Source: Candidatus Aminicenantes bacterium (GTDB lineage Bacteria; Acidobacteriota; Aminicenantia; Aminicenantales; UBA4085). From it: DNA of 64,000 nucleotides. This document shows, piece after piece, positions 7,964 to 64,000 of the stretch. A program made the position numbers and the translations under genes. The notes beneath the pieces were generated by a model that was not told the origin of the DNA, searched no databases, and saw only the letters and a list, made by a program, of their open reading frames with translations. Location: positions 12,567-76,566 of the forward strand of contig JAPKZJ010000071.1 of the NCBI GenBank assembly GCA_026393855.1. Direction: 5' to 3'. Numbering within the stretch: the first letter of the stretch is position 1; every line of letters starts with the position of its first letter.

Positions 7964-8019
7964 GCCGTTTCGGGTTTTGCTATTATACTATACCCTCGAT
8001 CGGAACGATCGGGGCCGAA

Positions 8020-20589: not shown

Positions 20590-20724
20590 TCCCCTTCCTT
20601 TTTCGCCATCCGATCGAAGCTCGCGTCGGCCCGTTCCTTGACTTATCAGGATGGAGTTGTTAAGTTTCATCTAGCGAAAGCGGATTACTCGATCTTACTC
20701 ATTGGGAATTATGGGGAGCGCCCT

Positions 20725-22176
20725 TTGAAGAGAGGCCTGATCTCGTCGATCCTTTTCCTTCTCGGAGCCATTCTCCCCGCCCCGGCCCAGGACAAGGAAT
20801 TCCGATTCGACGCCGGCGCTCGCCAGGCCCGCGATGTCTCGCTGTACCGTTCCAGCTACGCGCTTGTGATCGGCATTTCCAATTACACGGCCGGATGGCC
20901 GAAATTGCCGGGCGTTTTACGGGACATCGTGGACGTGGAGAGGGCTCTGAAAAAACAGGGCTTCGAAGTGACGGTCGTCCGGGACGTCGGGCAGGATCGG
21001 ATCAAGGGGGCTATCGAAGACTTCATCGGCCGCCATGGCGGCGAGCCGGAGAACCGCCTCCTGTTCTATTTCGCGGGCCACGGCCACACCTTGAGGACGG
21101 GCTACGGCGGAGAACTGGGCTTCATCGTTCCCTCCGACGCCCCCAATCCCGACGTCGACAAGGCGGGCTTCCGGGCCAAGGCCATCAGCATGCTGCTGTT
21201 CGAGAACTACGCGGTCAGCATCGACTCCAAACACGTGCTGTTCGTGTTCGACAGCTGCTTCGCCGGTTCGATCTTTGCCGCGAGCCGGTCCGCCTCCGTG
21301 GCGATCAGCGAGAAGACGGCCGCCCCCGTCCGACAGTTCATCACCTCGGGGAGCGCGGACGAGAAAGTCCCGGACGAAAGCATCTTCAAAGGGCAGTTCA
21401 TCGCCGGAATCGAAGGCGAGGCGGACATGAACCGCGACGGCTATGTCACCGGGGACGAGTTGGGGATCTTTCTTGCGACAAACGTCGTCAACTACTCGAA
21501 AGGCGCCCAGCATCCGAAGTACGGAAAGCTGATGAATGCCAAGCTGGATAAGGGCGATTTCGTCTTCATCCTGCCCAAGGGGGTTATCCAACCGGTTTCC
21601 AAAACCGAGGCGGATGTCGCCTCCCGGATCGAGCTGGAGTTCTGGAAGTCGACCAAGGAAAGCGATCGGGCGGAAGCCTACGCCGGCTACCTGGCAAAAT
21701 ATCCGGGCGGCGTCTTCACGGCCCTGGCCAAGCAGAGGCTGGACGAATTGGCCAAGGCCGAGGCGGCGGAGAAAGCGGGCAACCCGGCCGCAGAGAACCG
21801 GGAGGAGGCCGTTCCCGCAGTCCGGTTGATCCAGCTCCCCGGGGCCATGATCCGCGAATATAACGACAGGATCGGACGATTCTCTGTTTCCGGCGTTCCT
21901 GCGGACCTCAAGGCCGGCGGCCAGATCACCCTGGTCTATGCCGTCGCCCGGGACGGCCGGGTGTCCGTCGAATCGATGAACGATGCGGCTCTCGATGTCG
22001 TCCCCGAGGATAAAAAGCAAGCGGTTAAGGACGGCATCATCGCCGCGGCCCGGGAGATCGTCCTGCCTCCGCCCCGGGACAAAGAAGGGAACCGCGTCAC
22101 CGTGGTCCATTGGCCGGTCAGCTATCAGGTCGGCCGTTATCAAGACAGGCTCGTTTTCAACATCGTCGCTTTCTAA
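20725..22176 (+). CDS. Secreted caspase-domain (peptidase C14) protein with C-terminal TonB_C-like/unknown domain
   Basis: Signal peptide LKRGLISSILFLLGAILPAPAQ (TTG start after GGGGAG). Caspase p20 His (LFYFAGHGHT) and Cys (VLFVFDSCFAGS) dyad; YALVIGISNY block. C-terminal ~150 aa are unassigned. The ORF-track start at 20638 is probably too early. Confidence 0.75.
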   Translation: MKRGLISSILFLLGAILPAPAQDKEFRFDAGARQARDVSLYRSSYALVIGISNYTAGWPKLPGVLRDIVDVERALKKQGFEVTVVRDVGQDRIKGAIEDFIGRHGGEPENRLLFYFAGHGHTLRTGYGGELGFIVPSDAPNPDVDKAGFRAKAISMLLFENYAVSIDSKHVLFVFDSCFAGSIFAASRSASVAISEKTAAPVRQFITSGSADEKVPDESIFKGQFIAGIEGEADMNRDGYVTGDELGIFLATNVVNYSKGAQHPKYGKLMNAKLDKGDFVFILPKGVIQPVSKTEADVASRIELEFWKSTKESDRAEAYAGYLAKYPGGVFTALAKQRLDELAKAEAAEKAGNPAAENREEAVPAVRLIQLPGAMIREYNDRIGRFSVSGVPADLKAGGQITLVYAVARDGRVSVESMNDAALDVVPEDKKQAVKDGIIAAAREIVLPPPRDKEGNRVTVVHWPVSYQVGRYQDRLVFNIVAF

Positions 22177-30400: not shown

Positions 30401-33400
30401 GCCCGCTCGAGCCGGCGCCCGTTCTGATAGAAGTCGATCAGGATCGGGCCTTTCGCATACCCGGTCCCCCACCACAGTTCATAATCATCGCCGACGTCGA
30501 CAATATCCCGGCGGGAGGCGGCGTGGAATGGGACTTTGACGGGGAAGGATGTCGCCGCCGGATCGAGCACCAGGAAGGCGAACCGCGTTTCGACCGCGAC
30601 TCCATCCTTGTCCTTGGTCCGGAGCCTGGCTTGATACGCACCCGGCCCAAGATCGAACGGGATCCGGCAGGCCTGGCGTTCGTCGAGGACGGTCTCGAAG
30701 TCCCGTTTCACCACGACCGCCCCGGCCGGCCACTTGCGCCAATCCGCGGTCCGGGCGAACCCGGCTTCGGGCCCGGATGCCCCCGCTTCCGCCTCGAGGA
30801 CGGCGCTCTCGCCGATGAGGTCGGCCGGCTCGGGCCGCTCGGGCCCGAGGAGCGGGGACACCTCGATGACCCCCTTGGCCGCGACGCGCTTGCCGTTCAA
30901 GGTCAGCGTGGAAGCCGTGAGGACCACGGGCTTGCCCTTCTCCTGCCAGTCGGAGCCGGACAGCGAGGCCTCGAGCGAGGCGAACCCCACCCGGACCCGG
31001 CCTTCATCGCTGCGCGTTTCGCCCGTCCCATCGGTGACGTCGGCGGTAACCGCGAACGTGAAGACCGTACCGGGATCGGCCGGAACCGAAGCGTCGGGCT
31101 TGGCCGGAAAGCGAACCGTGAACTTTCCTTCGACGTCGGTGCGGACGGTGCCGTGGGCGATCTCCTGCGAGTCGCCGCCGGAGCCGCCGCGCCAATAGAA
31201 CCACCACCAGGGATACCGGACTTCGCGTACGACCCGGTATTTGACCGAGGCGCCGTCGACCGGAGCACCGGCATAGGTCGTCGCCGCGCCGGCGAACTCG
31301 ATCGTCTCGCCCAGCTTGAACTCCCGCTCGGGAACGGCCAGCTTGACCTCGAACTTGGGCCGTTTGTACTCCTCCACCCGGACCGACGCCTGCCCGGCCG
31401 GATTCTCCGCCTGAATGGTCATGGCCCCGGTCAGCCGGTCGGTCGGCGCGGAAAACGAGCCGCTGAAGGACCCGAAATCGTTCGTCGTCAGGCTCAAAGC
31501 CGCGATCTCCTCGCGGTTGGCGTCCCGGAAGACGACCCGCACGGACTGCTTGGGCAGGATCCGGTAATTGTCCGCGGCCCGGTCGACATTCAGGCAGAGG
31601 CCCTTGAAAAAGATCGTCTGCCCGGGACGGTAAATGGAGCGGTCGGTGAAGAAGACCGTGACGGGCGCCTCTCGTTCGGTCCGATCGTAGGACCGGTCGA
31701 TCTGCGTCTCGGCGATCTCTCCTCCATCGGCCGTCCGGACGTGAAAAACACGATTGCGATACGAGTCGCCGGCCTGAAGAAAGAAGGCGCCTTGGGCATC
31801 GGTCTTGGCCGTGCCGATCTTAACCAGGGCGGACTTGTTGTAATCCCATTCATAGGCAACGATGTCCGCGCCGGGGACCGGGTCGCCCGAGGCGGCCCGA
31901 ACGATGAGGCCTTCCGGAATGAGTCCGGCGGTCCCGGCCACGAAACCGAGGTCGGAAACCCAGAACGACGCGGCTTCGACTTTATTGGCCTTGTTCGCGA
32001 ACGACTCGTCATGGCTGGCCAACAGGTAATAAAAGCCGGGCTTGAGGGCCGGCATCTCCACCAATGCCCGGCGCGATTGATAGTCTTTGGTGGGCTTCAG
32101 GTCGGCCGACCAACGGGCCTGGGGCGCCCGGGTTAAAATCTTGGCCACGGCATCGTCGTTCAGCCAGAAGAGCGTCTCGGCCCCCCTGCCGGCCAACAGG
32201 CCGGCGAAATCCTCCCGCACGGCCCGAAAATGGAGCCGGGTGACGTTCCGGTATTCAACAACCAGCCGGGCCGGACGGTCCGGCGCCACCACCCCTTCGG
32301 TCCGGACATCGAACTCGCGGGCCGTGATGCGGGCCATCAGAACTCTGCAATTCGCCGCCCCGATCGACTTGGGGTGGGCATCGGCGCCCCGCTTGGCTAA
32401 GGCATAGGCCTGGATAAAATCGCCGGACTCGTGCACCGCTTCGGCCCAACGGGCCAGGGCGGAGGCTTGAAGCGGCGAGGCGGCATGCACCTCGACCAGT
32501 TCGCGCAGGCGCTGGATATAGCGATCGCGGGCGGCGTCGCCGGCCGAGGCTTTGGCGAAATCGAGCCGCTGGAGGTCGATATCGAACGCCGCATCGCCGT
32601 CGGCGTCGCCCTTGTGAAAGGCCAGCAGGCCCTGAAAGACTCGCAAAGCCCGCAAGGCGGGGGCTTCCTGATCCGTCGTCTCGGGTTCGTACTTCAAGAA
32701 TTCGGCCGCTGGGGCCAAGGCGGCCGAGTCAGCCGTAATCTCGAAAGCGTCCTCGGGACGGGCCGCGGCCTGCTCGCCGGAAGCATAAAACTCGAGCGCT
32801 TCGAAGGCCGCGAAATCATAGAGCGTCGGCCGCCGAGTAGACGGCTGGTCGCCCGGCAGAAGAAAGCCCAGGAAAGCCGCGATCGGAGTCTTCTTCAAGT
32901 TCTCCGCGTCCTTGAAGATGTCCTGATAGAGCCCGTCGATCGTCCGCAGCAGCCGGGGCAGGTCCCAAGTCGTGAAATCCTTGTCGTCGACACCCTCCGT
33001 CGCGGTCCGCCCGGTGAACCGCCAGCGGTTGCGCGAGAAATAGCTCCAGTACCAGCGGGCCAACACGATCCGCAGCATCGGCTTGAGCGATTCGGGAGCC
33101 TTCCCGATCTCCTCCTGCAGCCGGACGAGGCGCGGCCCCGGCTGGTTCCCTTCGATCGTCGCCTCCAGGATGAGCTGCCGGGTCAGAGCCCGCAGGGCTT
33201 CGGCCGGCTGGCGGTCCGCGGCGGAGGCGGTATAGATCTTCTTCAGCAGGTCGACGGCGGTCTGGGGCAGCCCATCCTTTTCGGCCTTGGCAACCTGGGC
33301 CCAGAGCTCGACCGTGTTCACCTTGGGTCGGTCTTGCATCGTTTTTCCTCGGATGGCGCCGGCCACGACGACGGCCAGGAGGACGAGAATGCCGATCAGC

Positions 33401-33429
33401 ATGTGCATCCGGACGGTTCTTTTGCGCAT
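27415..33429 (-). CDS. Alpha-2-macroglobulin family protein (bacterial A2M, ~2000 aa) with thioester motif
   Basis: Signal/anchor MLIGILVLLAVVVAGA; 2004 aa. Thioester-type motif AYPYECAEQIFNRL in the expected C-terminal third. Architecture consistent with bacterial MG-domain A2M proteins. Confidence 0.8.
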   Translation of the reverse strand: MRKRTVRMHMLIGILVLLAVVVAGAIRGKTMQDRPKVNTVELWAQVAKAEKDGLPQTAVDLLKKIYTASAADRQPAEALRALTRQLILEATIEGNQPGPRLVRLQEEIGKAPESLKPMLRIVLARWYWSYFSRNRWRFTGRTATEGVDDKDFTTWDLPRLLRTIDGLYQDIFKDAENLKKTPIAAFLGFLLPGDQPSTRRPTLYDFAAFEALEFYASGEQAAARPEDAFEITADSAALAPAAEFLKYEPETTDQEAPALRALRVFQGLLAFHKGDADGDAAFDIDLQRLDFAKASAGDAARDRYIQRLRELVEVHAASPLQASALARWAEAVHESGDFIQAYALAKRGADAHPKSIGAANCRVLMARITAREFDVRTEGVVAPDRPARLVVEYRNVTRLHFRAVREDFAGLLAGRGAETLFWLNDDAVAKILTRAPQARWSADLKPTKDYQSRRALVEMPALKPGFYYLLASHDESFANKANKVEAASFWVSDLGFVAGTAGLIPEGLIVRAASGDPVPGADIVAYEWDYNKSALVKIGTAKTDAQGAFFLQAGDSYRNRVFHVRTADGGEIAETQIDRSYDRTEREAPVTVFFTDRSIYRPGQTIFFKGLCLNVDRAADNYRILPKQSVRVVFRDANREEIAALSLTTNDFGSFSGSFSAPTDRLTGAMTIQAENPAGQASVRVEEYKRPKFEVKLAVPEREFKLGETIEFAGAATTYAGAPVDGASVKYRVVREVRYPWWWFYWRGGSGGDSQEIAHGTVRTDVEGKFTVRFPAKPDASVPADPGTVFTFAVTADVTDGTGETRSDEGRVRVGFASLEASLSGSDWQEKGKPVVLTASTLTLNGKRVAAKGVIEVSPLLGPERPEPADLIGESAVLEAEAGASGPEAGFARTADWRKWPAGAVVVKRDFETVLDERQACRIPFDLGPGAYQARLRTKDKDGVAVETRFAFLVLDPAATSFPVKVPFHAASRRDIVDVGDDYELWWGTGYAKGPILIDFYQNGRRLERAWASAEATQGRTTVRVAEKHRGGFTIVLTMVKDNRLYRETRRVLVPWSNKRLDLRWKTFRSKLRPGQAETWSLEIKGPKAAAAAAEMVASLYDASLDQFLGHGFPGVMNIFRSDTTNLRSGYSNRRQDLRDYVDRLNSIPSTATPLYIRFPEDVVERLFGFDYPSRRMMARPGAIPEAEPSMAMDVAAAPASELKSMAGGIVGGVVGGIAAPPPPVKKPAEVDLSAVKARKNLSETAFFYPQLLADKNGTVTIEFKIPEALTRWKFLGFAHDKDLRSGSIEAEAVTQKELMVQPNPPRFLREGDVIELTVKVTNMTETEQAGAVELAFFDPRTEAPLDAALANKSRRQAFTLPAKQSRSFAWPIAVPDGLEAVGYKAVAAAGDFSDGEEGAFPVLSRRMLVRESIPLWISDKGEKSFRFDKLADSGGSGSLRQLGLTVQMASNPAWYAIQALPYLMAYPYECAEQIFNRLYANGLAGRIAASDPKIRRVFDLWKGTPALVSNLEKNQDLKSVLLQESPWVLEAKNETQAKHAIGLLFDENTLASSLKNAYGKLAAMQLADGSWPWFPGGRGDSYITLYLVTGFGRLKRLGVTDVSQDLAVKAIDHLDEWIDKVYREIVKDKTQALNHLSPTIALFLYGRSFFLKEKPVPDAARKAFDYFLGQGAKFWLPLDNRQSQAHLAVGLKRFGDAATPGKIMRSMKERSKLDPELGRYWAETELAWWWYRAPIETQAMMIEAFDEVLGDAKAVEECKIWLLKQKQTQDWKTTKATADAIYALVLKGTDILASDAVVEVRLGGQAVKPETVEAGTGFYEKRYAPGEIRPAMGEIVVKKTDPGIAWGGVHWQYLEDIGKITPHAQNPLTLKKTVFVRRATAKGPVIEPVRGPLAVGDTVVVRIELRTDRDLEYVHMKDHRGSGLEPVNVLSQYKFQDGLAYYEATKDTASHFFIDYLPKGTYVFEYQLRVVHRGTYQNGMAHIECMYAPEFNSHSGSVEIIVR

Positions 33430-50591: not shown

Positions 50592-51617
50592 TCAGAGCCG
50601 AATAGCCAGCCCTGCCGTCAGCTGAAACCCGGACAGCTCGCCGTTGGCGACCGTCGTTCCGGGCGCCGTGCTGTGGCCGATGGTGCTGAAGTTGGTCGTC
50701 AGGATGGGTGCCGCGTATTTTCCCCAGGCCGTCGTGGCGTTCTCCCAGCTGATGCCCCAGGTTCCGGAGAGGGAATAATCGGTCTCCGAAGGAACGGGGC
50801 TCTCCACGACCGTATGGATGGTGTGGGGGCCGTGGATCTTGGTCAGCTTGCGGAAGGCGTAGCCGCCCCGGCCGTAGATCTCCAAGAAGGGCAGGAGCTT
50901 GATCCTGATCTGGCCGCCCAGCTCGATGGCCACGCTGTCGGCGTGGCCCGTCAGCTCCATCGTCCGGGAGCTCGCGGACGTCGTCCCCGTCTCGGTGGTG
51001 ACGCTCTCGCGGCGTTGGTTCAAGACCTGGAAATCGGCCAGGATCGGGCCGCCCTGCAAGTATATTTCGGTCCGCAGGAACTTGAGCAGATTCCAGCCGA
51101 AATGGACCCCCAATTGAGGCATCCAGGCCTTGGCCGATACGACAAAGCCGGAGTTCGTATAGTGGGCGGTGAAGGGAACGCCGGTCGGTGGATTGGCAAC
51201 CTCGACATCCAGCCCCACGTCGGAGTTCTGAACGCCCTTCAAGTATTGCAAGCCGAAGGATAGGGCGAACGTCGGGCTGACCTGATAGCGCAGGTAGGCC
51301 CCGACCGGCGTCATCGCCGTGAGAGGCAGGAACGTCTTGCCCGCCGTGTAGCGGTATTCGGGCGTATAGGCGTCGCCGTACAAGTTGTCATAATAGGCAT
51401 ACTTCTTAACGTAGTAGTGTTGGAGATAAAGATTCTCGCCATCAACCGCACGGTTGATGTTGCCGGGCGCGATCCGGCTCCAGCCCCCGGTCAATTCGAT
51501 GGTGAAATTGGAGAAACTGAAAGGATTGCCTTCCTCCTGGGCTAGGCCGGGAGACGGCCAAAGAAAAGCGGCGGCGATGACGATGAAGGCGACGGCCGCG
51601 ATGGATTTATAATGCAC
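50592..51617 (-). CDS. Putative outer-membrane beta-barrel protein (porin-like), paralog 1
   Basis: GTG start 6 nt after AAGGAG; signal peptide IAAVAFIVIAAAFLWPSPGLAQE. The body alternates amphipathic strands and ends ...LTAGLAIRL. ~45% identical to the adjacent paralog. Confidence 0.5.
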   Translation of the reverse strand: MHYKSIAAVAFIVIAAAFLWPSPGLAQEEGNPFSFSNFTIELTGGWSRIAPGNINRAVDGENLYLQHYYVKKYAYYDNLYGDAYTPEYRYTAGKTFLPLTAMTPVGAYLRYQVSPTFALSFGLQYLKGVQNSDVGLDVEVANPPTGVPFTAHYTNSGFVVSAKAWMPQLGVHFGWNLLKFLRTEIYLQGGPILADFQVLNQRRESVTTETGTTSASSRTMELTGHADSVAIELGGQIRIKLLPFLEIYGRGGYAFRKLTKIHGPHTIHTVVESPVPSETDYSLSGTWGISWENATTAWGKYAAPILTTNFSTIGHSTAPGTTVANGELSGFQLTAGLAIRL

Positions 51618-51741
51618 GATTGGCTCCTTGGCCGATCCGCCCGCCTCGGCGGCCGGCGGACGCACTCGGCGGCGGAATTATGAAGCGGGATTGTAACGCG
51701 TTCCGGGAAACCGGGTCAACCGCAAAAGAACGGGGAGGATT

Positions 51742-52746
51742 TTAAAGCCGGATCGAGATTCCCGCCGTCATTTGAAAGCCGGACAGGTCGACGTTGGCGG
51801 ATGCCGTACCGAACATGCCGGAGTCAAAGGACCAAGCCTGGGTCCCATATTCGGTCGTCAGGGTAGGAGACGCATAGGCGCCCCAGGGGGTGTCGGCTTT
51901 CTCCCAAGTCCGGCCCCATATTCCTGTCAGCGAGTACAGCGTATCGGAAGGCACGGGGCTCTCCGCCACGGTCCGGATGGTTCGCGGGCCTCGGATTTTG
52001 GCCAGCTTGCGGAAGGCATAGCCGCCTTGTCCGTAGACTTCCAGAAAAGGCAGCAACTTGAACCGGACCTGGCCGCCCAGCTCGATGGCGACACTGGTGG
52101 AACGGCCCGTCATCTCCAGCGTCCGATAGCCGGACGCCGTCGTACATTCCGCGGCGGTCAGGCTCTCGCGACGCTGGCTCCAAATCCGGCAATCGCCCAG
52201 TATCGGGCCACCCAGTAAATAAATCTCCGTCCGCAAGGCCTTGAGCAGATCCCATCCGAAATGGGCCCCCAGTTGGGGCATCCAGGCCTTGACCGACTGG
52301 AGGAATCCCTGGTTCCGATAATGGGCGGTAAAGGGGATTCCGGCCGGGTCATTGCCGACTTCCACATCCAGCCCGACATCCGAAGTCCGCTCGCCGCGCA
52401 GATACTGCACGCCCAGAGACAGGGCAAAGGTAGGACTGACCTGGTAGCGAATGGAGGCGCCGATCGGTGTGACCGCTTCCAGCGGCAGGAAAGCCTTGCC
52501 GGCCGTATATCGATATACGGGCGCATAAGCGGCGTATTTTTTGAGGAAATAATGATCGAGGTAGAGATTCTCGTTCTGGGCAGCCGTTTTTAAATCGCCG
52601 AGTCCGGACCCGGCCCAGCCCCCCGCGAATTCGATCCGGAAGTTGGACCAGCGGAACGCATAGCCCTGCTCCTGGGCCCGGGCCAAAGAGGGCAAGAGAA
52701 CCGCCAGGGAAAGGCAGGCGATGATCCAGGCGCGACGACGGCTCAT
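51742..52746 (-). CDS. Putative outer-membrane beta-barrel protein (porin-like), paralog 2
   Basis: Signal peptide RRRAWIIACLSLAVLLPSLARAQE. Blocks shared with paralog 1 (RYQVSPTFALS, DVGLDVEV, GIPFTAHY, KAWMPQLG.HFGW, SVAIELGGQ.R.KLLPFLE.YG.GGYAFRKL); ends ...MTAGISIRL. Confidence 0.5.
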   Translation of the reverse strand: MSRRRAWIIACLSLAVLLPSLARAQEQGYAFRWSNFRIEFAGGWAGSGLGDLKTAAQNENLYLDHYFLKKYAAYAPVYRYTAGKAFLPLEAVTPIGASIRYQVSPTFALSLGVQYLRGERTSDVGLDVEVGNDPAGIPFTAHYRNQGFLQSVKAWMPQLGAHFGWDLLKALRTEIYLLGGPILGDCRIWSQRRESLTAAECTTASGYRTLEMTGRSTSVAIELGGQVRFKLLPFLEVYGQGGYAFRKLAKIRGPRTIRTVAESPVPSDTLYSLTGIWGRTWEKADTPWGAYASPTLTTEYGTQAWSFDSGMFGTASANVDLSGFQMTAGISIRL

Positions 52747-52813
52747 GGCAGTCCCCTTCAACCCCTTTAACGTCGGAACTTGCCGGAATTGTAACAAGAG
52801 CCGGAATTCTTTG

Positions 52814-56253: not shown

Positions 56254-56784
56254 TCAATCCTTCAACAGCTTATAGATCGCGTTGCGATCTTCCCAGGCCT
56301 TGGTCCGCAGGGCGGCGTCGATCGGGAACTCGACCTGCTTCAGCTCGACCGGGGCCGACTTCTGGTCGACCAGGCCGAGGGCCAGGGCGACGCCGTAGAG
56401 AATGGCCTCGGGGCGCGGCGGGCAGCCCGGGATGTAATAGTCCACCGGGACGGCCGTGGCACCGCCGCCCGTGACGTGGTAGGTATCGAACCAGCAGCCG
56501 CCGCCGACGGCGCAGGATCCCACGCCGAAGACGAGCTTGGGAGCCGGCATGGCCTCGAAGGCCCGCTTGACGAGGGGGAAGGTCGGCCGGGTCACGGCGC
56601 CCGAGAGGAGCATGACGTCGGCGTGGCGGGGCGAGCCGACCAATTTGATCCCGAACCGCTCCACATCGTAGAACGGCGTCAGGATATTGAGGATCTCGAT
56701 GTCGCAGCCGTTGCAGGCGCCGCTGTTGCAGTGGTAGACCCAGAGGGATTTGGGAAATGCCTTTTTGGCCAGCTTGGTCAGCAT
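56254..56784 (-). CDS. hycG: Group-4 [NiFe]-hydrogenase small subunit (NuoB/HycG-like)
   Basis: NuoB-type cluster motifs WVYHCNSGACNGCDIE, GVGSCAVGGGCW and IPGCPPRPE. Confidence 0.8.
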   Translation of the reverse strand: MLTKLAKKAFPKSLWVYHCNSGACNGCDIEILNILTPFYDVERFGIKLVGSPRHADVMLLSGAVTRPTFPLVKRAFEAMPAPKLVFGVGSCAVGGGCWFDTYHVTGGGATAVPVDYYIPGCPPRPEAILYGVALALGLVDQKSAPVELKQVEFPIDAALRTKAWEDRNAIYKLLKD

Positions 56785-56785
56785 G

Positions 56786-57340
56786 TCACTCCTCCATCCG
56801 GGCCGGCCGCTCGACCCGTTCAGTCGCCGCCAGGGCGGCCGGATCGAAGCGGTCGGTCGTCCGGCGCAGGACCGTCCGCGCCTCGAGGCTGTCGTAGCGG
56901 TAGCCGCGCAGCCCCAGCTTATCCACGGCGTTGCGGATTTCCATGTCGTAGCAGCGCCCGCAGCGGTTGCAGGTGAGCATGAACAGCTCCAGGTTCTGGG
57001 TGATATCGGCCCGGTTCCCGGTAGCCAGCTCGAAATCGGAGGTCATGACGATGGCCTTTTCCGGGCACAGCTCGGCACAGCGGCCGCAGTAGGTGCAGCG
57101 CGAGCCGTCGTAGAGCAAAATCCGGATCTCGGGGCAGACATCCCGCACCAAGATGGTTCGGGCCGGGCAATGATCGGCGCAGCCGCCGCAGCCCAGGCAT
57201 TTGGTATGGTCCCAGGCGGGCTGGCCGCGAAAGTCCTTGGGCACAGGCCGTACCACCTTGGGATAGGCCAGGGTCACCCGGCCCGGCTTGAGAGCCAGGA
57301 CGATCTGTTTGAGCTTGCTGGCGAGCCACATGATTACCAT
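56786..57340 (-). CDS. hycF: 4Fe-4S ferredoxin subunit (NuoI/HycF-like)
   Basis: Two CxxCxxCxxxCP motifs (CLGCGGCADHCP, CTYCGRCAELCP) plus CNRCGRC. Confidence 0.75.
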   Translation of the reverse strand: MVIMWLASKLKQIVLALKPGRVTLAYPKVVRPVPKDFRGQPAWDHTKCLGCGGCADHCPARTILVRDVCPEIRILLYDGSRCTYCGRCAELCPEKAIVMTSDFELATGNRADITQNLELFMLTCNRCGRCYDMEIRNAVDKLGLRGYRYDSLEARTVLRRTTDRFDPAALAATERVERPARMEE

Positions 57341-58236
57341 CCCTTAACGGCCAGGCCGACGGCGGCCAAAGCCCAGACGATGAGGACGGCATAATAGCGG
57401 ACGGCCTGGTCGATCCGCAGGCGCGGGTTGGTGGCTCCGACCAGGCCGATGCCGGCGAAGAGGACCACCATGGCCAGGAGCTGCAGAACCAGGTCGAGCG
57501 GATAGATGCCGGTCCGCAGGACCGGAACGAAGGCCGAGACGAAGAGCCAAGCATAGAACATTCTCTTCATCATGGCCGCATACTTGAACAAGGCGAGGTT
57601 CGGCCCGCTGTACTCGATCATCGGGCCCTCGAGAAGCTCCACTTCGGCTTCGGCGATGTCGAAGGGCTGGCGGGCGACGAAGGCCTGCAGGGCCAGAAGA
57701 TAGACGGCCAGCATCAGCACGGACGACAGGCCGAAGCCCGCGCCCGCCGCGGACGGCATGGCCGCCGCCAGGGTCAGGGTCTTGAGCTTGACGGCGCCGA
57801 GGACAAGGGTCATGGCCAGGACCGGCTCGACCATGATCATGGTCACCATCTCCCGGCTGGCTCCGATCATCCCGAAAGTGTTCCGGCCGGCCAGGGCGCC
57901 CATCAGAACGGCGACGCCACCCAGGGTCAACAGGTAGACGACCAGGATGCCGTCCATCCGGCCGGCCAAGGCGTTCATCCGGAAGCCGAACGGCACGGCG
58001 GCAACGACGACCAGAATGGCGGCGAACGCCAGGAGCGGCGCCAGCCGGAAGGGCCAGGTGCCGGCCGAGTTCAGGCTCTCCTTGCCCAGCAGCTTGAATA
58101 AGTCGTAGTAGGGCTGGACGAGCGGCGGGCCCTGGCGCGACTGGATGCGGGCCGTGAGCTTGCGCAGCAGGCCCTCGAAGAGGGGCGCCAGGAGGAGGAA
58201 GATCAGGATGTTGATCAGGGGTAGGAAGTATCGCAT
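57334..58236 (-). CDS. hycD: Membrane subunit NuoH/HycD-like
   Basis: Eight predicted TM helices; EGLLRKLTARIQSRQGPP... characteristic of the NuoH/HycD family. Confidence 0.8.
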   Translation of the reverse strand: MRYFLPLINILIFLLLAPLFEGLLRKLTARIQSRQGPPLVQPYYDLFKLLGKESLNSAGTWPFRLAPLLAFAAILVVVAAVPFGFRMNALAGRMDGILVVYLLTLGGVAVLMGALAGRNTFGMIGASREMVTMIMVEPVLAMTLVLGAVKLKTLTLAAAMPSAAGAGFGLSSVLMLAVYLLALQAFVARQPFDIAEAEVELLEGPMIEYSGPNLALFKYAAMMKRMFYAWLFVSAFVPVLRTGIYPLDLVLQLLAMVVLFAGIGLVGATNPRLRIDQAVRYYAVLIVWALAAVGLAVKGW

Positions 58237-58246
58237 CGCTGACTCC

Positions 58247-59917
58247 TCACATCCGCCCGGCCCGCGACAGGGCCGTCAGCTCGGGCCGTCCCAAGACGCG
58301 GCGGCGGCCCGTCCCCTGTTCCACGACGACCGCCCGATCCGTGCAGGAGAAGCAGGGATCGATGCTGCCGACGATGATCGGGAAGTCGGCGAACTGGTTG
58401 TCGAGAAGCATCCGCGGGACGCCTTGCAGGTTATTGTAAGTCGGGGCTCGGACGCGCCAGCGCTCGGGCCGGTTCTCTTCCCCGGTGATGACATAGTGAA
58501 CCGACTCGCCGCGCGGCGCCTCGACCATGGACAGGCCGTGGCGGTAGGCGGGAAGCGCCTCGAGCGGCTCGGCCAGGATCGGCCCGGCCGGCATCTTGTC
58601 CAAGGCCTGGCGCATGATCTTGACGGACTCGAAAACCTCCAGGAGGCGGACGAGGACGGTGCCCCAGACGTCGCACGAATCGGCCGTCGGGACGTCGAAG
58701 GCCAGCTCGTCATAGGCCGCGTAGGGATGGTCGCGGCGGGCGTCGATGTCGATGCCCCGGGCCCGGGCCACCGGCCCAAGCAGACCCCAGAGGACGGCCT
58801 CGGCCTTGGGCATGTGGCCGACGCCCTTGGTCCGTTTATGGATGGACGAGTCCTTCAGGACGGCGGCCTTGAGGCCCAGGACCTCGGTCTCGACCGTCTT
58901 GAGGACCGACCGGATATCCGCGGCCGTCTCCGGCGAGATGTCCCGCCGGACGCCGCCCAGGACGACCATGCCGTAGGTCTTGCGGTTGCCCGTGATCCGC
59001 TCGGACAGCCACATGACCGGCTCGCGGACACGCCAGGCGTGCATGAAGATGGTGTCGAAGCCGATCAGGTGGCCGGCGACACCGAGCCAGAGAAGATGGG
59101 AGTGGATCCGCTCCAGCTCCAGCATCAGAACCCGGATAAACTCGGCCCGGCGCGGCACCGGCAGCCCGGCCGCCTCCTCCACCGCCTGGGCGTAAGCCGT
59201 GGCGTGGACCGAGCCGCAGATGCCGCAAATCCGTTCGGCCACGAAAGGGATCTCGTTGTAGCTGACTTGCGTCTGGCACAACTTCTCGATCCCGCGGTGA
59301 GTCATGAACCCGCGGTAGTCGCAGCCCTTGATCGTCTCGCCGTCCACATAGACGGCGAAATGGGCCGGCTCGTGCAGGCTGGTATGGAACGGACCGACCG
59401 GGACCGTCGTCGTCCCGGGAGGGGCCTCGTCCAGCTCATAGGCGACATCCTCGGCCGAAGGCGGAACGAGGTTGTACGGCACGTCTTTGCGCAAAGGGTA
59501 GATCCCGTCCGGCCAGTCGTCGGCGAGGATGAGCTTCTTGGGCTTGGGATGGCCGGGGAATCGGAAGCCGAGCAGGTCCCTGTACTCGCGCTCGGTCCAG
59601 CCCGCCGCCGGGATATCGGGGGTGATCGAGGGGAATTCGGGGGCTTCGGCCGGGGCCGAGGAACAGACGGCGACCGCGAACCCGTCTCTGTCGAAGGCGA
59701 ACAGATGGATGATGCCGAAGCCTGCGCCGCGGGCCCGATCGTCGGTGCCGACGCCGACTTGATAGCGGCCGCCTTCCGCGATCAGTCGACGGGCGATCTC
59801 GGGCAAGCGAGCCCGGTCGATGTCGACGAGCAGGCGCTTGGGGGCGGCGGGATCGGGACCGGCGAGAGCGGCGCCGAACTCGGCCTGAAGTGTGCAGAGA
59901 AGCGTCTCTTGAGTCAT
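58247..59917 (-). CDS. hycE: Group-4 [NiFe]-hydrogenase large subunit (NuoC-NuoD fusion, HycE-like)
   Basis: N-terminal Ni-binding RICGICGSVH and C-terminal DPCFSCTDR motifs. N-terminal NuoC-like domain. The ATG at 59917 is preceded by AAGGAATGAG. Confidence 0.85.
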   Translation of the reverse strand: MTQETLLCTLQAEFGAALAGPDPAAPKRLLVDIDRARLPEIARRLIAEGGRYQVGVGTDDRARGAGFGIIHLFAFDRDGFAVAVCSSAPAEAPEFPSITPDIPAAGWTEREYRDLLGFRFPGHPKPKKLILADDWPDGIYPLRKDVPYNLVPPSAEDVAYELDEAPPGTTTVPVGPFHTSLHEPAHFAVYVDGETIKGCDYRGFMTHRGIEKLCQTQVSYNEIPFVAERICGICGSVHATAYAQAVEEAAGLPVPRRAEFIRVLMLELERIHSHLLWLGVAGHLIGFDTIFMHAWRVREPVMWLSERITGNRKTYGMVVLGGVRRDISPETAADIRSVLKTVETEVLGLKAAVLKDSSIHKRTKGVGHMPKAEAVLWGLLGPVARARGIDIDARRDHPYAAYDELAFDVPTADSCDVWGTVLVRLLEVFESVKIMRQALDKMPAGPILAEPLEALPAYRHGLSMVEAPRGESVHYVITGEENRPERWRVRAPTYNNLQGVPRMLLDNQFADFPIIVGSIDPCFSCTDRAVVVEQGTGRRRVLGRPELTALSRAGRM

Positions 59918-59921
59918 AGGC

Positions 59922-61784
59922 TCATTCCTTGGGTCCCATCCGGCCGCCGGTCCAGCGAAACAGGTCTTTAAGGGAGGCAAACATCCCGCGGTCGGTGAAG
60001 CGAGTCCGTTCGTCGAGGGACCGGTAGCCGCAGAGCCAGGTCGGCACGGCCCGTTCGCGGCTGCCGGCCGAGCGACGAAGCCACGCCCCGAGAGCCAGGG
60101 CGGCCAAGAGGAGCCCCAGGACGAGGGGCGGCGAGAAGGCCGCGCTCACCGCCGGCCCGAGGAGCTTGCCGATCCTGAGCCCGGACACGGAGGCGTCAAG
60201 GACGCGGTTCCAGCCGCCGGACTGGAAAAGCCAGCCCAGGGCGAAGCCGGGCGAATTCACCAGCGCGCCGGCGATGAACCGGACGAAAAGGAAAGGCAGA
60301 AGGCCCTGGGCCAGACAGATCGCGGCTAATCCGATCTTGGCCGCCAGCATCGAGCCGGGGACTTCATGGATGGGCTTGGGGGCGTACGCCTCGGCGCCGG
60401 AGGCGGTGAAGGCCAGGCCGAAGAATTTGACATAGCAGGCCAGGGTGACGGCGCTGGTGAAGAGGGCGACGATACCGAAGGGGACTAGCATGACCCAGCC
60501 TTGGCCGGCCAGCAGGGTCGAGGCGATGATCGTCCACTTGCTGGCGAAGCCGCTGCCCGGCGGCATCCCGGCGATCGCCAGCGAGGCCACCGCGGCCAGG
60601 ACAGTACTCACCGGCATCCAACGGACCAGTCCGCCCAGCCGATTGAGGTCTTTGGTCCCGGTGGCGTAAAAAAGGCTTCCGCCGGTCAGGAACAGCAAGC
60701 CTTTGAAGATGGCGTGATTGAGGACATGGCAAAGGGCTCCCAGGACGGCCACGGCGGCTAATCCTATCAGGGCCGGTTCTTCGGCGGCCGAGAGATAGAG
60801 AGCCGCGCCCAGGCCCAACACGATGTAGCCGATCTGGCCGATCGAGCTATAGGCCAGGAGGCGCTTGGCGTCGCTCTGCTTGACCGATTGAAGCGTCCCT
60901 ATAAACAGCGTCGCCGCTCCGATCGTCGCCAGAATCGCGCCCCACGGCCGCGGGTCGAAGCCCGAGCCGGCTCCGGGGGCCAGGAAGAAGAAAGTCCGAA
61001 TCAGCCCGAAAATGCCCGTCTTGAGCATGACGCCGGAGAGGAGCGCCGAGACGGGGGAAGGGGCCACGGAGTGTGCGTCCGGCAGCCAAAGCTGGCCGAG
61101 AGGAAAAACGCCGGCTTTGAGCCCGAACCCGAGAAGAAGAAGCGCCAGCGCTCCCGCCAGGACAGTCGGGCTCGCGGTCCCCGCCTTTATTCCCAGCTCG
61201 TGGAGCGAATCCCCCGCCCGCCCGCCCAATAGGAAGCCGGCCGCCACGATCAAGGCCCAAGCCAGTTCCATCAGCAGGAGATAGCGGTTCGCAACCCGGA
61301 TATTGGTCCTCTCCTTGTATTCGAACCGGATCAGCAGGAACGAGGCGATGGTCATGATCTGCCAAGCCAGGCTGAACCCGATTGAGAGATCGTCGATCGT
61401 CACTAGGGCGGCCAGGCCCAGGATGAAGAGGGGCAGCCGGAAATAATATCCGCGCAGGCTATAGCCGGCATAATGGTCCATGTAGCGGACCGAATAGAGG
61501 GCGGCGGCGGCGGAGACGATCCCGATCACGACGAGAAAGAGACCGGCCAGGCCGTCGATGAGGAAAGGGACGGCGAACGGCCCGATCCGGACCAGCACGG
61601 CTTCCTCCATGCCGCCGCCGACGGCGGCCCGGAGGCCGGTCCAGACCAGAAACGCAGCCGCCTCGGCGGCCAGGGCAAAGTGCAGCCAGCCGGTGAACCG
61701 GCGGGCCCGGGCCGTTGCCGCCGACAGGACGGCGGCGGCGGCCAGAAGAAGGAAGGCCAGGAAGAGCGGCGTCAGGAGTCTCAT
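59922..61784 (-). CDS. hycC: Antiporter-like membrane subunit (NuoL/MnhA/HycC-HyfB family)
   Basis: 620 aa, ~16 TM. Conserved ...WLPDAHSVAPSPVSALLSGVMLKTGIFGLIR... proton-translocation block. The start overlaps the upstream stop (ATGA). Confidence 0.8.
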   Translation of the reverse strand: MRLLTPLFLAFLLLAAAAVLSAATARARRFTGWLHFALAAEAAAFLVWTGLRAAVGGGMEEAVLVRIGPFAVPFLIDGLAGLFLVVIGIVSAAAALYSVRYMDHYAGYSLRGYYFRLPLFILGLAALVTIDDLSIGFSLAWQIMTIASFLLIRFEYKERTNIRVANRYLLLMELAWALIVAAGFLLGGRAGDSLHELGIKAGTASPTVLAGALALLLLGFGLKAGVFPLGQLWLPDAHSVAPSPVSALLSGVMLKTGIFGLIRTFFFLAPGAGSGFDPRPWGAILATIGAATLFIGTLQSVKQSDAKRLLAYSSIGQIGYIVLGLGAALYLSAAEEPALIGLAAVAVLGALCHVLNHAIFKGLLFLTGGSLFYATGTKDLNRLGGLVRWMPVSTVLAAVASLAIAGMPPGSGFASKWTIIASTLLAGQGWVMLVPFGIVALFTSAVTLACYVKFFGLAFTASGAEAYAPKPIHEVPGSMLAAKIGLAAICLAQGLLPFLFVRFIAGALVNSPGFALGWLFQSGGWNRVLDASVSGLRIGKLLGPAVSAAFSPPLVLGLLLAALALGAWLRRSAGSRERAVPTWLCGYRSLDERTRFTDRGMFASLKDLFRWTGGRMGPKE

Positions 61785-62626
61785 CAGATCTGCTCCCCTA
61801 GCGTCTTGATCTGCTTATAGGTGTAGACAGGGCCGTCGGTACAGACCAGGGTCCGGCCGATGGCGCAGTGCTGGCATTTGCCGAGGCCGCACTTCATATG
61901 GCGCTCAAGCGTCGAGATAATGCAATCGTCCCGGAGGCCGCGGCCGGAGAGCTCCTGGATGACGGCGTTGAACATGATCGGGGGGCCGCAGACAAAAGCC
62001 ACGGTGTTCTCCACCGGGACCTTGGCCTTCTCGATCAGGGTGTGGACGAAGCCCGTCTCCCCCGTCCAGCCGGGTTCGGGCCGGTCGATCGTGACATAGG
62101 TCTCGAATCCCGCAGTCCCGCGCCAGCCCTCGATCGTCTCCCGGTACATCAGGTCCTTGGGCGCCCGAGCGCCGTAAAGAAGGATCAAGCGGCCGAACTC
62201 GGCCCGGTGCCGGAGGACGTGGACGATGGACGAGCGCAACGGGATGAGGCCGATCCCGCCGGCGACATAGATGATTGACTTGCCTTTGATGTCCTCGAAC
62301 GGGAAACCGTTGCCGAAGGGTCCGCGGATGCCGATCTTGTCGCCGACAACGAGGCCGGCCAAAGCACCGGTGACCTTGCCCACGGACCGCACTGAGAGGT
62401 GCCGCCGATCGGCCTCGGGGCTCCAGGGCAGCGAAACGGCGAACTCGCCCGACCCGAAGACGGTGCACATGACGAATTGCCCGGAGCGGACGGCGAAGGT
62501 CCTCTCCAGCTCGGGGTCCTCGAACCGGAAGTAGTAGGTCCGGACGTCCTCGATCTCGTCCCGGATCTCCTCGATCACGGCTGCGGCCGGGACGGTCGTG
62601 ATGACGGCGGGGTTGCGGTCGTTCAT
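61784..62626 (-). CDS. FAD/NAD(P)H-binding oxidoreductase with C-terminal 2Fe-2S cluster (sulfhydrogenase gamma HydG / AsrB-like)
   Basis: FNR-like fold motifs (RTYYFRF, GGIGLIPL) and C-terminal CGLGKCQHCAIGRTLVCTDGPV. Likely ATG at 62626 (MNDRNPAVITTV). Confidence 0.7.
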   Translation of the reverse strand: MNDRNPAVITTVPAAAVIEEIRDEIEDVRTYYFRFEDPELERTFAVRSGQFVMCTVFGSGEFAVSLPWSPEADRRHLSVRSVGKVTGALAGLVVGDKIGIRGPFGNGFPFEDIKGKSIIYVAGGIGLIPLRSSIVHVLRHRAEFGRLILLYGARAPKDLMYRETIEGWRGTAGFETYVTIDRPEPGWTGETGFVHTLIEKAKVPVENTVAFVCGPPIMFNAVIQELSGRGLRDDCIISTLERHMKCGLGKCQHCAIGRTLVCTDGPVYTYKQIKTLGEQI

Positions 62627-63693
62627 GGCTTCGATCCCGTGGTTTCCCGGCGGATGGCGGTGACGACGTTGGGCAGGCCGATATCGCCCGGACAGACCCG
62701 GGCGCAGCGGCCGCAGCCGACGCACCCCGGCCGGAGGTACTTTTTGGACTGGGAATAGGACAGCTTGCAAAAGAAACGCTTGTTGCGGCGGTCTTCAACC
62801 GGCCGCCGGGGATTGTGCTCGCCGGCCATGCGCGCATAGCCCTCGAAGGAGCACGAGTCCCAGGTCCGCAGGCGGTCGGTCGGCCCGGCTTGGGTTGCGA
62901 CATCCTCGATGTTGAAACAGGAGCAGGAGGGGCAGACGAAAGAGCAGGCCCCGCACTCGAAGCACTGCCGGCCGATGTATTCCCAGGTCTCGGGCTTGAC
63001 GAATCCCGTGGTCAGGCGGTTCACGGCCCGCGAGATCCAGGCTTTGTTTTCGACCGCCTGCCCGTCGAAGAGGCCGATGGAATGATTGACCGCGGCGTCG
63101 CGGGCCGCCGCATCGGCCGGGCCGGCGGCAGCCAGCCCCAGCTCGACGGCCAGGGCGGCGCCCTTCTCGCTGCCCGTCTCGAAGAGATAGGCGGATCCGA
63201 GGTCCGTTAGATTGACGTCATATCCTTCGGCGGCGTAGGGGCCGCTGTCCGTGCAGACGCAGAAGCATTGGACGAAGGGCCGGACGCAGGTGTTGGTCAC
63301 GATCAGCATCTTGCGGCGGTGGTCGCGATAAACTTCATCGACGTATTCCTGGCCCAGGAAGAAGCGGTCGAAGCAGAGCAGGCCGTTCAGGTCGCAGGAC
63401 CGGACGCCGACCAGGGCCTTGGGCCGGACGAGGTCGTCCCGGACGATGTCCAGGTCCTTGCTGTCCCGGTCGTAGCGGAAGGACAAGATCCGTTCCAGGT
63501 GCGGGAAGACGGTGAATTTGGGCGTGTTGACGGGGATGGGCGCGTCCAGCCGGAGGTCTTCCGGCGAGGCGGCCCGGTCGAAGAGCGTCTCACCGGAGAC
63601 CGGGTCGACGATCGGGCCGAACAGCTCGTACCGATCGGCGAGCGTCCGCAGCAGCATTGGGAGATCGGACTTGGGCAGGATGTACATGCTCAC
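62623..63693 (-). CDS. 4Fe-4S dicluster protein (sulfhydrogenase beta HydB / AsrA-like)
   Basis: Cys clusters CFECGACSFVCPSCSC and CVGCGRCARVCP plus FVQCFCVCTDSG. 356 aa. Overlaps both neighbours. Confidence 0.7.
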   Translation of the reverse strand: MSMYILPKSDLPMLLRTLADRYELFGPIVDPVSGETLFDRAASPEDLRLDAPIPVNTPKFTVFPHLERILSFRYDRDSKDLDIVRDDLVRPKALVGVRSCDLNGLLCFDRFFLGQEYVDEVYRDHRRKMLIVTNTCVRPFVQCFCVCTDSGPYAAEGYDVNLTDLGSAYLFETGSEKGAALAVELGLAAAGPADAAARDAAVNHSIGLFDGQAVENKAWISRAVNRLTTGFVKPETWEYIGRQCFECGACSFVCPSCSCFNIEDVATQAGPTDRLRTWDSCSFEGYARMAGEHNPRRPVEDRRNKRFFCKLSYSQSKKYLRPGCVGCGRCARVCPGDIGLPNVVTAIRRETTGSKP

Positions 63694-64000
63694 ACCTTCT
63701 CGATTCGGACGGGAATGACGCCGTCTTCCCCGCGCTCGACGGCCCCCGCTTCGGGCTTGAGAAAGCCCTCGATCATCGGCCCGATGAAATAGGGAGCGTA
63801 GACCATGCCGGGCAGGACGTCGGTCGTCACCCGGGCTTGGACGGTCATGCTTCCGCGGGCCGAAACGACTTTGACCGGCCGCTTGTCGCGCAGGCCAAGC
63901 CGGGCGGCGTCGCCGGGGTGAATCTCGACCAATCCTTGAGGATATAGGAGAAGCAAGGCGTTGTACTCCCGGCGCGGGATGAACGTCTTCTTCATGATGT
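63690..64000 (-). CDS. Molybdopterin oxidoreductase C-terminal (MopB_CT) domain, probably the formate dehydrogenase H (FdhF)-like catalytic subunit; 5' part outside the window
   Basis: LVEIHPGDAARLGLRDKRPVKVVSARGSMTVQARVTTDVLPGMVYAP is the typical molybdopterin-dinucleotide-binding C-terminal barrel. The frame is open to the window edge. Confidence 0.6.
   Translation of the reverse strand, partial: IMKKTFIPRREYNALLLLYPQGLVEIHPGDAARLGLRDKRPVKVVSARGSMTVQARVTTDVLPGMVYAPYFIGPMIEGFLKPEAGAVERGEDGVIPVRIEKV

Follow-up and report, generated by a model that had tools for sequence, protein, structure and literature searches.

Among known systems, the gene cluster analysed here stands closest to formate hydrogenlyase (FHL) 1 of Escherichia coli, in which hydrogenase-3 (HycBCDEFG) is combined with the formate dehydrogenase FdhF (PDB 7Z0S), together with the related Hyf system. 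The cluster lies at the end of a 64,000-nt stretch of DNA from a Candidatus Aminicenantes bacterium (contig JAPKZJ010000071.1), referred to below as the window. It encodes a Hyc-type [NiFe]-hydrogenase, a flavoprotein and a multi-cluster iron-sulfur protein of the sulfhydrogenase/AsrAB kind, and an FdhF-like protein that we call MoX, and it is followed immediately by genes for two-component signalling. The sulfhydrogenase beta-gamma pair of Pyrococcus and the AsrAB pair are electron carriers between NAD(P)H and a catalytic partner. The published description nearest to the present cluster, among those that we could search, concerns an 'enigmatic' region in Saganbacteria, which combines an unclassifiable FdhH-like molybdopterin protein with one 4Fe-4S cluster, asrA- and asrB-like genes and a group-4 hydrogenase, and to which its authors assigned no function (PMC6349859); group-4 hydrogenases of Aminicenantes have otherwise been labelled formate hydrogenlyase (PMC5459899). 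In the literature that we searched, there was no description of a Hyc-type variant of this arrangement, of the loss of catalytic residues or of an invariant linkage to a receiver gene. On sequence grounds, the operon descends from, and is predicted to work like, a Hyc/Hyf-type FHL minus the catalytic FdhF and HycB.

One genome per species was scanned with family-specific peptide patterns, which yielded 200 genomes with a relative of the cluster; 80 loci were retrieved. Their carriers are Aminicenantes/Saccharicenans, other Acidobacteriota, many Spirochaetota (Leptospirales-like bins) and a few Thermodesulfobacteriota. According to tblastn searches of the 80 loci with the window proteins, the order MoX-HydB-HydG-(HycI)-HycC-HycE-HycD-HycF-HycG-REC is preserved nearly everywhere. 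In two metagenome-assembled genomes of delta-proteobacteria (Thermodesulfobacteriota; L070 and L086), the hycC- and hycD-like genes are found upstream of MoX and do not flank hycE.

The large subunit is, judging by its motifs and matches, a genuine group-4 [NiFe]-hydrogenase of the Hyc/Hyf type, most like group 4a. Among solved structures, a reference set without groups 4b, 4c, 4e, 4f and 4g, the best match was E. coli HycE (7z0s_E, group 4a; 4.6e-127, 428 bits), followed by MbhL of group 4d (265 bits) and by NuoD/NdhH at about 200 bits or less, which upholds the group-4 assignment made in the initial annotation. It contains the motifs RICGICGSVH and DPCFSCTDR (within IDPCFSCTDR), the latter followed by a 28-aa C-terminal tail; across 66 family members, RICGICGSVH and IDPCxSCTxR show no variation. 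As in E. coli FHL, a NuoC-like domain is fused to the NuoD-like part, and a C-terminal extension for endoproteolytic maturation is present. The other subunits are equally recognizable as Hyc homologues, with identities to the E. coli proteins of 51% for HycG, 39% for HycE (full length), 32% for both HycC and HycD, and 31% for HycF. HycG is the most conserved subunit of the family (55% of its positions are at least 95% identical), and its residues C24, C27, C91 and C121, the four cysteines of the one proximal [4Fe-4S] cluster expected of group 4, are invariant. All 12 cysteines of HycF are likewise invariant, and the protein matches the model of the formate hydrogenlyase iron-sulfur subunit (2.4e-30). 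The NiFe cysteine motifs, NuoB-like and NuoI-like iron-sulfur subunits, and NuoH-like and NuoL/Mrp-antiporter-like membrane subunits characteristic of group 4 are thus all encoded. We considered the C-terminal cysteine motif of HycF as a family-specific extra cluster that might replace HycB, and rejected it because E. coli HycF has the same motif. Group 4f (Ehf) was rejected as the class of the operon on motif grounds alone; that label covers other complexes, often without NiFe ligands.

The antiporter-like subunit has hydrogenase 4 subunit B (HyfB) as its best NCBIfam match (3e-110) and conserves the equivalents of NuoL K229, H334, H338, K342 and K399, the Lys/His residues of transmembrane helices (TM) 7, 8 and 12. 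The membrane arm consists of HycC and HycD alone; no Mrp/Mnh subunits are present, so the resemblance to archaeal Fdh-Mfh-Mnh modules that had been proposed for this locus is not supported. A HycI-type protease gene, another feature in common with E. coli FHL, is part of the operon in most family members: in 64 of 72 related loci it is inserted after the hydG-like gene and ahead of hycC, and this position is empty only in the clade of the window (L007-L013) and in one other locus. The window clade has lost hycI from the 61784 junction, yet its large subunit keeps the C-terminal extension. Searches of the window by tblastn (E <= 1e-5) and Pfam scans of its other genes detected no homologue of hyp, hycI, hycH or hycB, as the initial annotation had stated for the hyp and hycI maturation genes.

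In contrast to E. coli FHL, the operon has no HycB and encodes two additional subunits. No match to E. coli HycB was detected by blastp and tblastn in the operon, the window or the 80 related loci. The two additional proteins reproduce the domain architecture of the sulfhydrogenase beta-gamma (HydBG/ShyBC, group 3b) and AsrAB pairs, which are also their best NCBIfam matches, in line with what had been noted from the sequence. The HydB/AsrA-like protein, built around a Fer4_22 domain, matches ShyB, HydB and AsrA at 1e-35 to 1e-37. Seventeen of its cysteines are kept without change in 79-80 of the 80 family members, and the protein probably takes the place of HycB as electron hub. The HydG/AsrB-like protein matches PRK08345, HydG, ShyC and AsrB at 1e-50 to 1e-65 and combines an FNR-type FAD/NAD(P) fold with a PyrK-type domain that has a four-Cys 2Fe-2S site; its motifs RxxS, GGIGxIPLRS and CGxGKCQHC...C are at least 95% conserved. 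Unlike the known pairs, these subunits score far below the equivalog cut-offs (for example 188 against 650, and 129 against 690) and are joined to a membrane-bound group-4 hydrogenase, not to a soluble group-3b alpha-delta dimer or the sirohaem protein AsrC, and no group-3b or AsrC gene was found in the cluster.

Only the C-terminus of MoX is encoded in the window. The complete gene was read from an overlapping contig, L001, which was recovered via an exact-protein look-up of HycD and overlaps the window by 7,594 nt with 3 mismatches (99.96% identity). Like FdhF, MoX is a molybdopterin-fold protein with a single N-terminal 4Fe-4S cluster, whose ligands C8, C11, C15 and C43 are invariant in every homologue covering them, and it matches the F420-dependent formate dehydrogenase (9t1s_L) at 4e-97 and E. 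coli FdhF at 5.5e-67. When MoX is aligned to these two proteins, W130, Y131 and V321 take the places of Sec/Cys140, His141 and Arg333 of FdhF. This loss is not peculiar to one genome. Among the 120 best MoX homologues (45-100% identity), the position of the molybdenum ligand is Gly in 104 and Trp in 11, the rest having Phe, Arg or Ala and none Cys, and the position of Arg333 is Thr, Ala, Val or Pro but never Arg. The neighbouring His is kept in 94 of them and lost here. Against the formate dehydrogenase alpha model TIGR01591, MoX scores 354.4 bits, well short of the cut-off of 666.25. The formate link drawn in the initial annotation from the partial gene therefore fails once the full protein is read, which counts as the refuting outcome that the annotation itself had named: judged by these residues, MoX is not a formate dehydrogenase but a degenerate paralogue that has lost both catalytic and cofactor-type residues.

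To gauge the cofactor site, we aligned 40 MoX homologues with five Mo-bis-molybdopterin guanine dinucleotide (MGD) enzymes (E. coli FdhF, NapA and FdnG, the F420-dependent formate dehydrogenase and Bacillus subtilis YjgC) and with E. coli NuoG. The five enzymes agree fully in 60 columns, of which MoX retains 32 and NuoG 26; most of the residues retained by MoX are Gly, Pro or Cys, and a few others are retained in NuoG too. Most of the polar residues in these columns are lost, among them K44, R138, N176, H181, Q301, D429, D478, R581 and H585, and three of the substitutions (K44R, N176D and Q301G) are the same in MoX and NuoG. Gln335 and many other residues of the MGD-binding kind are replaced as well, and MoX is the least conserved subunit of the family, with 17% near-invariant positions against 37-55% in the others. 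It probably carries no molybdenum cofactor. An internal control is provided by the FdsA-type formate dehydrogenase encoded elsewhere in the window, in which every motif lost in MoX is intact; its presence indicates that the genome makes real MGD enzymes and that MoX is a degenerate paralogue of them. In a library-wide search, the MoX signature was confined to the top few 50%-identity clusters, and canonical formate dehydrogenases with the pattern 'K-R-C-H-N-H-R-Q-D' first appeared at about 34-36% identity to MoX. Many further FdhF-like groups among public sequences (representative proteins P0183-P0323) also lack the Cys/His/Arg signature, for example a group of 600-650-aa proteins with 'R-R-A-Y-D-H-A-R-D' at the nine diagnostic positions, and degenerate formate-dehydrogenase-like subunits may be common and under-recognised.

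The genes of the cluster form an unbroken, tight string on the minus strand that runs from 64000 to 52814, from the molybdopterin-like subunit to a hybrid kinase (Table 1). Gene identities in the window were established by Pfam and NCBIfam profile matches, which support each of the minus-strand genes listed at the outset, that is, the molybdopterin protein, the HydB/AsrA- and HydG/AsrB-like proteins and HycC, E, D, F and G. Neighbouring hydrogenase genes, as called on L001, overlap by up to 4 nt or are up to 10 nt apart, and for the string as a whole the limits are a 4-nt overlap and a 19-nt gap; the G+C content of the window is about 65%. The start codon (ATG) of the hydG-like gene overlaps the stop codon of the hydB-like gene. 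The list of open reading frames places the starts of three genes too far upstream; the correct positions are 62626 for the hydG-like gene, 59917 for hycE and 53902 for the hybrid kinase. The gene order C-E-D-F-G within the hydrogenase part differs from that of E. coli.

Table 1. Genes of the hydrogenase cluster, its surroundings and the separate formate dehydrogenase locus (window positions unless a contig is named)
Feature	Position	Strand	Evidence or remark
MoX, full gene	L001:2565-4547		remainder beyond window edge; Molybdop_Fe4S4 + Molybdopterin + Molydop_binding
MoX, C-terminal 102 residues (full protein 660 aa, FdhF-like molybdopterin fold)	63690..64000	-	Molydop_binding-type matches
HydB/ShyB/AsrA-like iron-sulfur subunit, 354-356 aa	62623..63693	-	Fer4_22 2e-27
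HydG/ShyC/AsrB-like FAD/NAD(P)H-binding 2Fe-2S flavoprotein, 280 aa	61784..62626	-	NAD_binding_1 + DHODB_Fe-S_bind
HycC/HyfB-like antiporter-like membrane subunit, 620 aa	59922..61784	-	Proton_antipo_M 6e-49
HycE-like [NiFe] large subunit, 556 aa	58247..59917	-	fused Complex1_30kDa + NiFeSe_Hases + Complex1_49kDa
HycD/NuoH-like membrane subunit, 300 aa	57334..58236	-	NADHdh 7e-53
HycF/NuoI-like subunit with two [4Fe-4S] motifs, 181 aa	56786..57331	-	Fer4 families
HycG/NuoB-like small subunit, 176 aa	56254..56784	-	Oxidored_q6 1.6e-27
REC1, single-domain CheY-like response regulator, 134 aa	55841..56245	-	Response_reg
HK1, Cache-domain sensor histidine kinase, 640 aa	53922..55844	-	dCache_3/sCache_3_3 + HisKA + HATPase_c
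Hybrid REC-HisKA-HATPase kinase, 362 aa	52814..53902	-	Pfam
Two tandem paralogues, putative outer-membrane proteins, 63% identical	50592-52797		no family assignment
173-aa protein	L001:1819-2340, just beyond 64000		matches no Pfam or NCBIfam family; 48 related loci have homologues
NuoE-NuoF fusion protein	3495-5252	-	adjoins FdsA-type gene
FdsA/FdhA-type NAD-type formate dehydrogenase alpha, 904 aa	5249-7963	-	all catalytic and MGD-type motifs intact
MobA-like NTP-transferase domain gene	8020-9135	+	divergent

Another difference from E. coli FHL is the regulatory gene content. Neither HycA nor HycH was detected in the cluster (the search did not extend to FhlA), and two-component genes are present instead. 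The start codon of REC1 is located 8 nt past the hycG stop codon, as originally reported, HK1 and REC1 overlap by 4 nt, and the hybrid kinase follows HK1 after 19 nt. The kinases have HisKA and HATPase_c domains, and the receivers have the acidic pocket, the Asp, the Thr/Ser and the Lys of phosphorylatable receivers; in REC1, the phosphorylation-site residues D9/D10, D53, T90 and K118 are at least 95% conserved, and its homologues are 57-90% identical across phyla. A receiver gene directly follows hycG in 64 of 65 loci, the single exception ending at a contig edge. This receiver is followed by a kinase in 53 loci, and HK1 follows REC1 in 46; in several Spirochaetota loci, a hybrid kinase stands directly after REC1, in the place of HK1. 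The hybrid kinase gene was also called in a relative (L091). No response regulator with an output domain, such as a DNA-binding domain, is present in the cluster, both receivers being single-domain proteins; a REC-GerE regulator was seen near the cluster, upstream of it, in a Spirochaetota locus only. The proposal that the hydrogenase has its own signalling module is therefore strongly supported by co-orientation, near-abutting genes and a linkage kept across phyla, except that the outer-membrane protein (OMP) genes, which had been included in that module, probably fall outside the operon.

We interpret the cluster as an NAD(P)H-linked, energy-converting hydrogenase derived from FHL, whose formate dehydrogenase subunit is a relic and whose operon encodes a phosphorelay, a reading to which we give about an even chance of being correct. 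The loss of the catalytic residues of MoX makes it more likely that the hydrogenase is fed by NAD(P)H. In this scheme, eight subunits would form a membrane-bound [NiFe]-hydrogenase of the Hyc/Hyf type (group-4a-like), in which FdhF and HycB are functionally replaced by the HydG/AsrB-like flavoprotein (FAD, 2Fe-2S) and the HydB/AsrA-like multi-cluster protein. Electrons would pass from NAD(P)H via FAD and the 2Fe-2S cluster to the HydB-like clusters and on through HycF and HycG to the NiFe site, or in reverse, giving the net reaction NAD(P)H + H+ <-> NAD(P)+ + H2 at the membrane, which HycD and HycC would probably couple to ion movement. MoX, a relic that keeps its N-terminal [4Fe-4S] cluster much like the C-terminal domain of NuoG, would have a structural or iron-sulfur role. 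The phosphorelay, comprising the periplasmic Cache kinase, the hybrid kinase and the single-domain receivers, would control expression or the activity of the complex; since no DNA-binding output is encoded in the cluster, it possibly acts on activity.

A further step, which we regard as possible but rather unlikely, is that the complex is a membrane NAD(P)H:H+ oxidoreductase whose reaction is coupled to an ion gradient, in effect a hydrogen-handling counterpart of complex I. As in complex I, a domain derived from formate dehydrogenase lacks catalytic residues but keeps an iron-sulfur cluster, with the three substitutions common to MoX and NuoG, and an NAD(P)H-oxidising flavoprotein module is joined to homologues of NuoB, C, D, H, I and L. 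There are also differences. The flavoprotein is of the FNR/PyrK type with FAD, not FMN, and is unrelated to NuoEF; the complex has an intact NiFe site and shows no trace of a site for quinone; only a single antiporter-like subunit is present; and MoX is a separate polypeptide without the N-terminal clusters of NuoG.

Several observations weigh against NAD(P)H-linked, ion-coupled operation with MoX as a mere relic. All carriers of the cluster are metagenome-assembled genomes. The scores of the electron-input subunits are all below the equivalog cut-offs, both for the gamma/AsrB-like protein (221.8 against 395, 187.7 against 650 and 172.1 against 288.6) and for the beta/AsrA-like protein (128.7 against 690, 122 against 750 and 120.4 against 323), so these proteins are relatives and not orthologues, and the scores do not establish their substrate. 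The reduction of protons by NAD(P)H is endergonic under standard conditions (-320 mV versus -414 mV), so the enzyme would have to run at low H2 pressure, draw on an ion gradient or work in the direction of H2 uptake. At the TM5 position of NuoL Glu144, a glutamate that is otherwise conserved among antiporter-like subunits, the HycC-like protein has Gln in 67 of 67 family members, a departure from E. coli FHL that calls canonical proton pumping into question; ion coupling may be altered, or there may be none. MoX retains family-specific invariant motifs, for example WHxNxxM...IPxREYxA, and, taken together with the His kept in 94 of 120 homologues, they indicate that it is still under selection; it may have a role beyond that of a scaffold. 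Finally, arsenite oxidase is a Mo-bisMGD enzyme that works without a protein ligand to molybdenum.

These last points are the core of a rival explanation, in which MoX is an active molybdenum or tungsten pterin enzyme of a new kind that has no protein metal ligand and acts on some substrate X, the complex linking X, NAD(P)H and H2, possibly by confurcation or bifurcation. Its full four-domain architecture and invariant motifs fit such a role, as do the prevalence of Gly at the ligand position beside a mostly retained His and the capacity of the genome to make MGD, to judge from the MobA-like gene and the canonical formate dehydrogenase; in close relatives, moreover, tungstopterin AOR genes are located near the cluster, and Matheus Carnevali et al. 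(PMC6349859) were unable to classify a similar molybdopterin protein encoded beside asrA/asrB-like genes and a group-4 hydrogenase. We nevertheless consider this explanation improbable. The polar residues common to the five MGD enzymes are widely lost in a NuoG-like pattern, and MoX evolves faster than every other subunit. There is no chaperone of the TorD/NarJ type (the 173-aa protein encoded upstream has a confident helical fold with no PDB match) and no molybdenum cofactor (Moco) riboswitch. The likeness to the Saganbacteria region, which is one of description, covers the FdhH-like protein, the asrA- and asrB-like genes and the membrane-bound group-4 hydrogenase; that region, however, has a CooF-like protein and an Mrp-Mbh-type membrane module, whereas the operon described here is of the Hyc type, has neither CooF nor HycB and is joined to a signalling module.

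A genuine formate hydrogenlyase, with MoX oxidising formate, electrons passing through the HydB-like protein to HycF, HycG and HycE, and NAD(P)H as a side branch, is very improbable. Formate dehydrogenase alpha subunits are indeed the proteins that MoX resembles most, the hydrogenase arm is Hyc-like and group-4 hydrogenases of Aminicenantes are routinely annotated as FHL (PMC5459899), but neither the ligand Cys/Sec nor the catalytic Arg occurs in any of the 120 homologues, the His is lost here too, Gln335 and many MGD-binding-type residues are replaced, the score is half the cut-off, and a canonical formate dehydrogenase sits elsewhere in the window. Least probable of all, in our view, is that the complex is a redox or H2 sensor feeding the phosphorelay and not a bulk metabolic enzyme, which is suggested by analogy with HoxBC-HoxJ. 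The regulatory hydrogenases (HoxBC/HupUV with HoxJ/HupT-HoxA/HupR, group 2b) also have hydrogenase genes linked to those of a histidine kinase and a response regulator, and the conservation of the receiver/kinase linkage across phyla, the lack of a DNA-binding output in the cluster and the Gln in TM5 would be in keeping with such a role. Those hydrogenases are, however, soluble sensors with an NtrC-type DNA-binding regulator, whereas the present cluster encodes all of a membrane complex of group 4, together with stand-alone receivers and with a Cache kinase that has a periplasmic sensor domain of its own. The strong conservation of the catalytic and iron-sulfur ligands, of both membrane subunits and of the in-operon maturation protease fits a working enzyme, and the Spirochaetota locus with an ordinary REC-GerE regulator upstream also argues against the sensor role.

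For the MoX-hydrogenase family, which extends over about 200 species-level genomes, the FHL label is probably wrong, in which case so are metabolic models in which formate yields H2 by way of this complex. If the NAD(P)H-linked reading holds, the family represents a type of energy-converting hydrogenase not yet described, with a bearing on the way in which strict fermenters dispose of NAD(P)H as H2. With its decayed formate dehydrogenase subunit and recruited NAD(P)H module, it could be seen as a living parallel to the proposed transition from FHL to complex I; if the complex is indeed a counterpart of complex I, two steps proposed for that transition, the decay of a formate dehydrogenase to a NuoG-like relic and the recruitment of an NAD(P)H flavoprotein, would have been repeated independently. 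Aminicenantes and uncultured Spirochaetota fermenters would then be able to make H2 from NAD(P)H without recourse to electron-confurcating [FeFe] hydrogenases. The formate dehydrogenase locus of the window (3495-9135) and the hydrogenase operon could together constitute a formate -> NADH -> H2 route, in effect a 'split' formate hydrogenlyase in which NADH would diffuse between a canonical NAD-linked formate dehydrogenase and the hydrogenase. The CheY-like receiver could also tune the complex directly, and invariant receiver and kinase genes within the operon represent a form of regulation that is unusual for a hydrogenase and can be tested. These points bear on hydrogenase bioenergetics and on the annotation of uncultured anaerobes.

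Upstream of the window edge, L001 carries a second single-domain receiver gene, the gene for the 173-aa protein, a 225-nt non-coding gap and the complete gene for MoX. A terminator-like hairpin is located 3' of the 173-aa gene, inside this gap, so the hydrogenase operon probably starts at MoX. No Rfam family, the Moco riboswitch included, has a match upstream of MoX. The upstream receiver and the 173-aa protein are widely conserved among the related loci, as judged by tblastn, and the 173-aa protein always occurs together with the hydrogenase and signalling genes. The AlphaFold model of the 173-aa protein is all-helical and confident (pLDDT 93), and a Foldseek search of the PDB with this model returned no fold match. 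In close relatives (L091/L009:9189-9809, L008, L010 and L013), a gene for a DUF4405 membrane protein is inserted between the 173-aa gene and MoX; confined to four close relatives, DUF4405 was rejected as a conserved subunit.

At the other end of the string, the two paralogues that had been described as OMPs co-transcribed with the hydrogenase are indeed present and similar to each other, but their identity as OMPs is weakly supported (OmpA_membrane, E = 0.033). A near-consensus sigma70-like promoter stands in front of each gene (52817-52788 and 51719-51690), and the second is followed by a terminator-like hairpin (50614-50593). Because each has its own promoter-like site, the two genes are probably separate transcription units, which speaks against their co-transcription with the operon; no homologue of either was found in the other loci within the retrieved DNA, and they were rejected as operon members. 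Farther away, the window encodes two caspase-domain (Peptidase_C14) proteins (20638-22176 and 24944-27310) with genes for an OMP beta-barrel protein and a 556-aa protein without a family between them, and these are followed on the minus strand by a gene for a 2004-aa bacterial alpha-2-macroglobulin (27415-33429).

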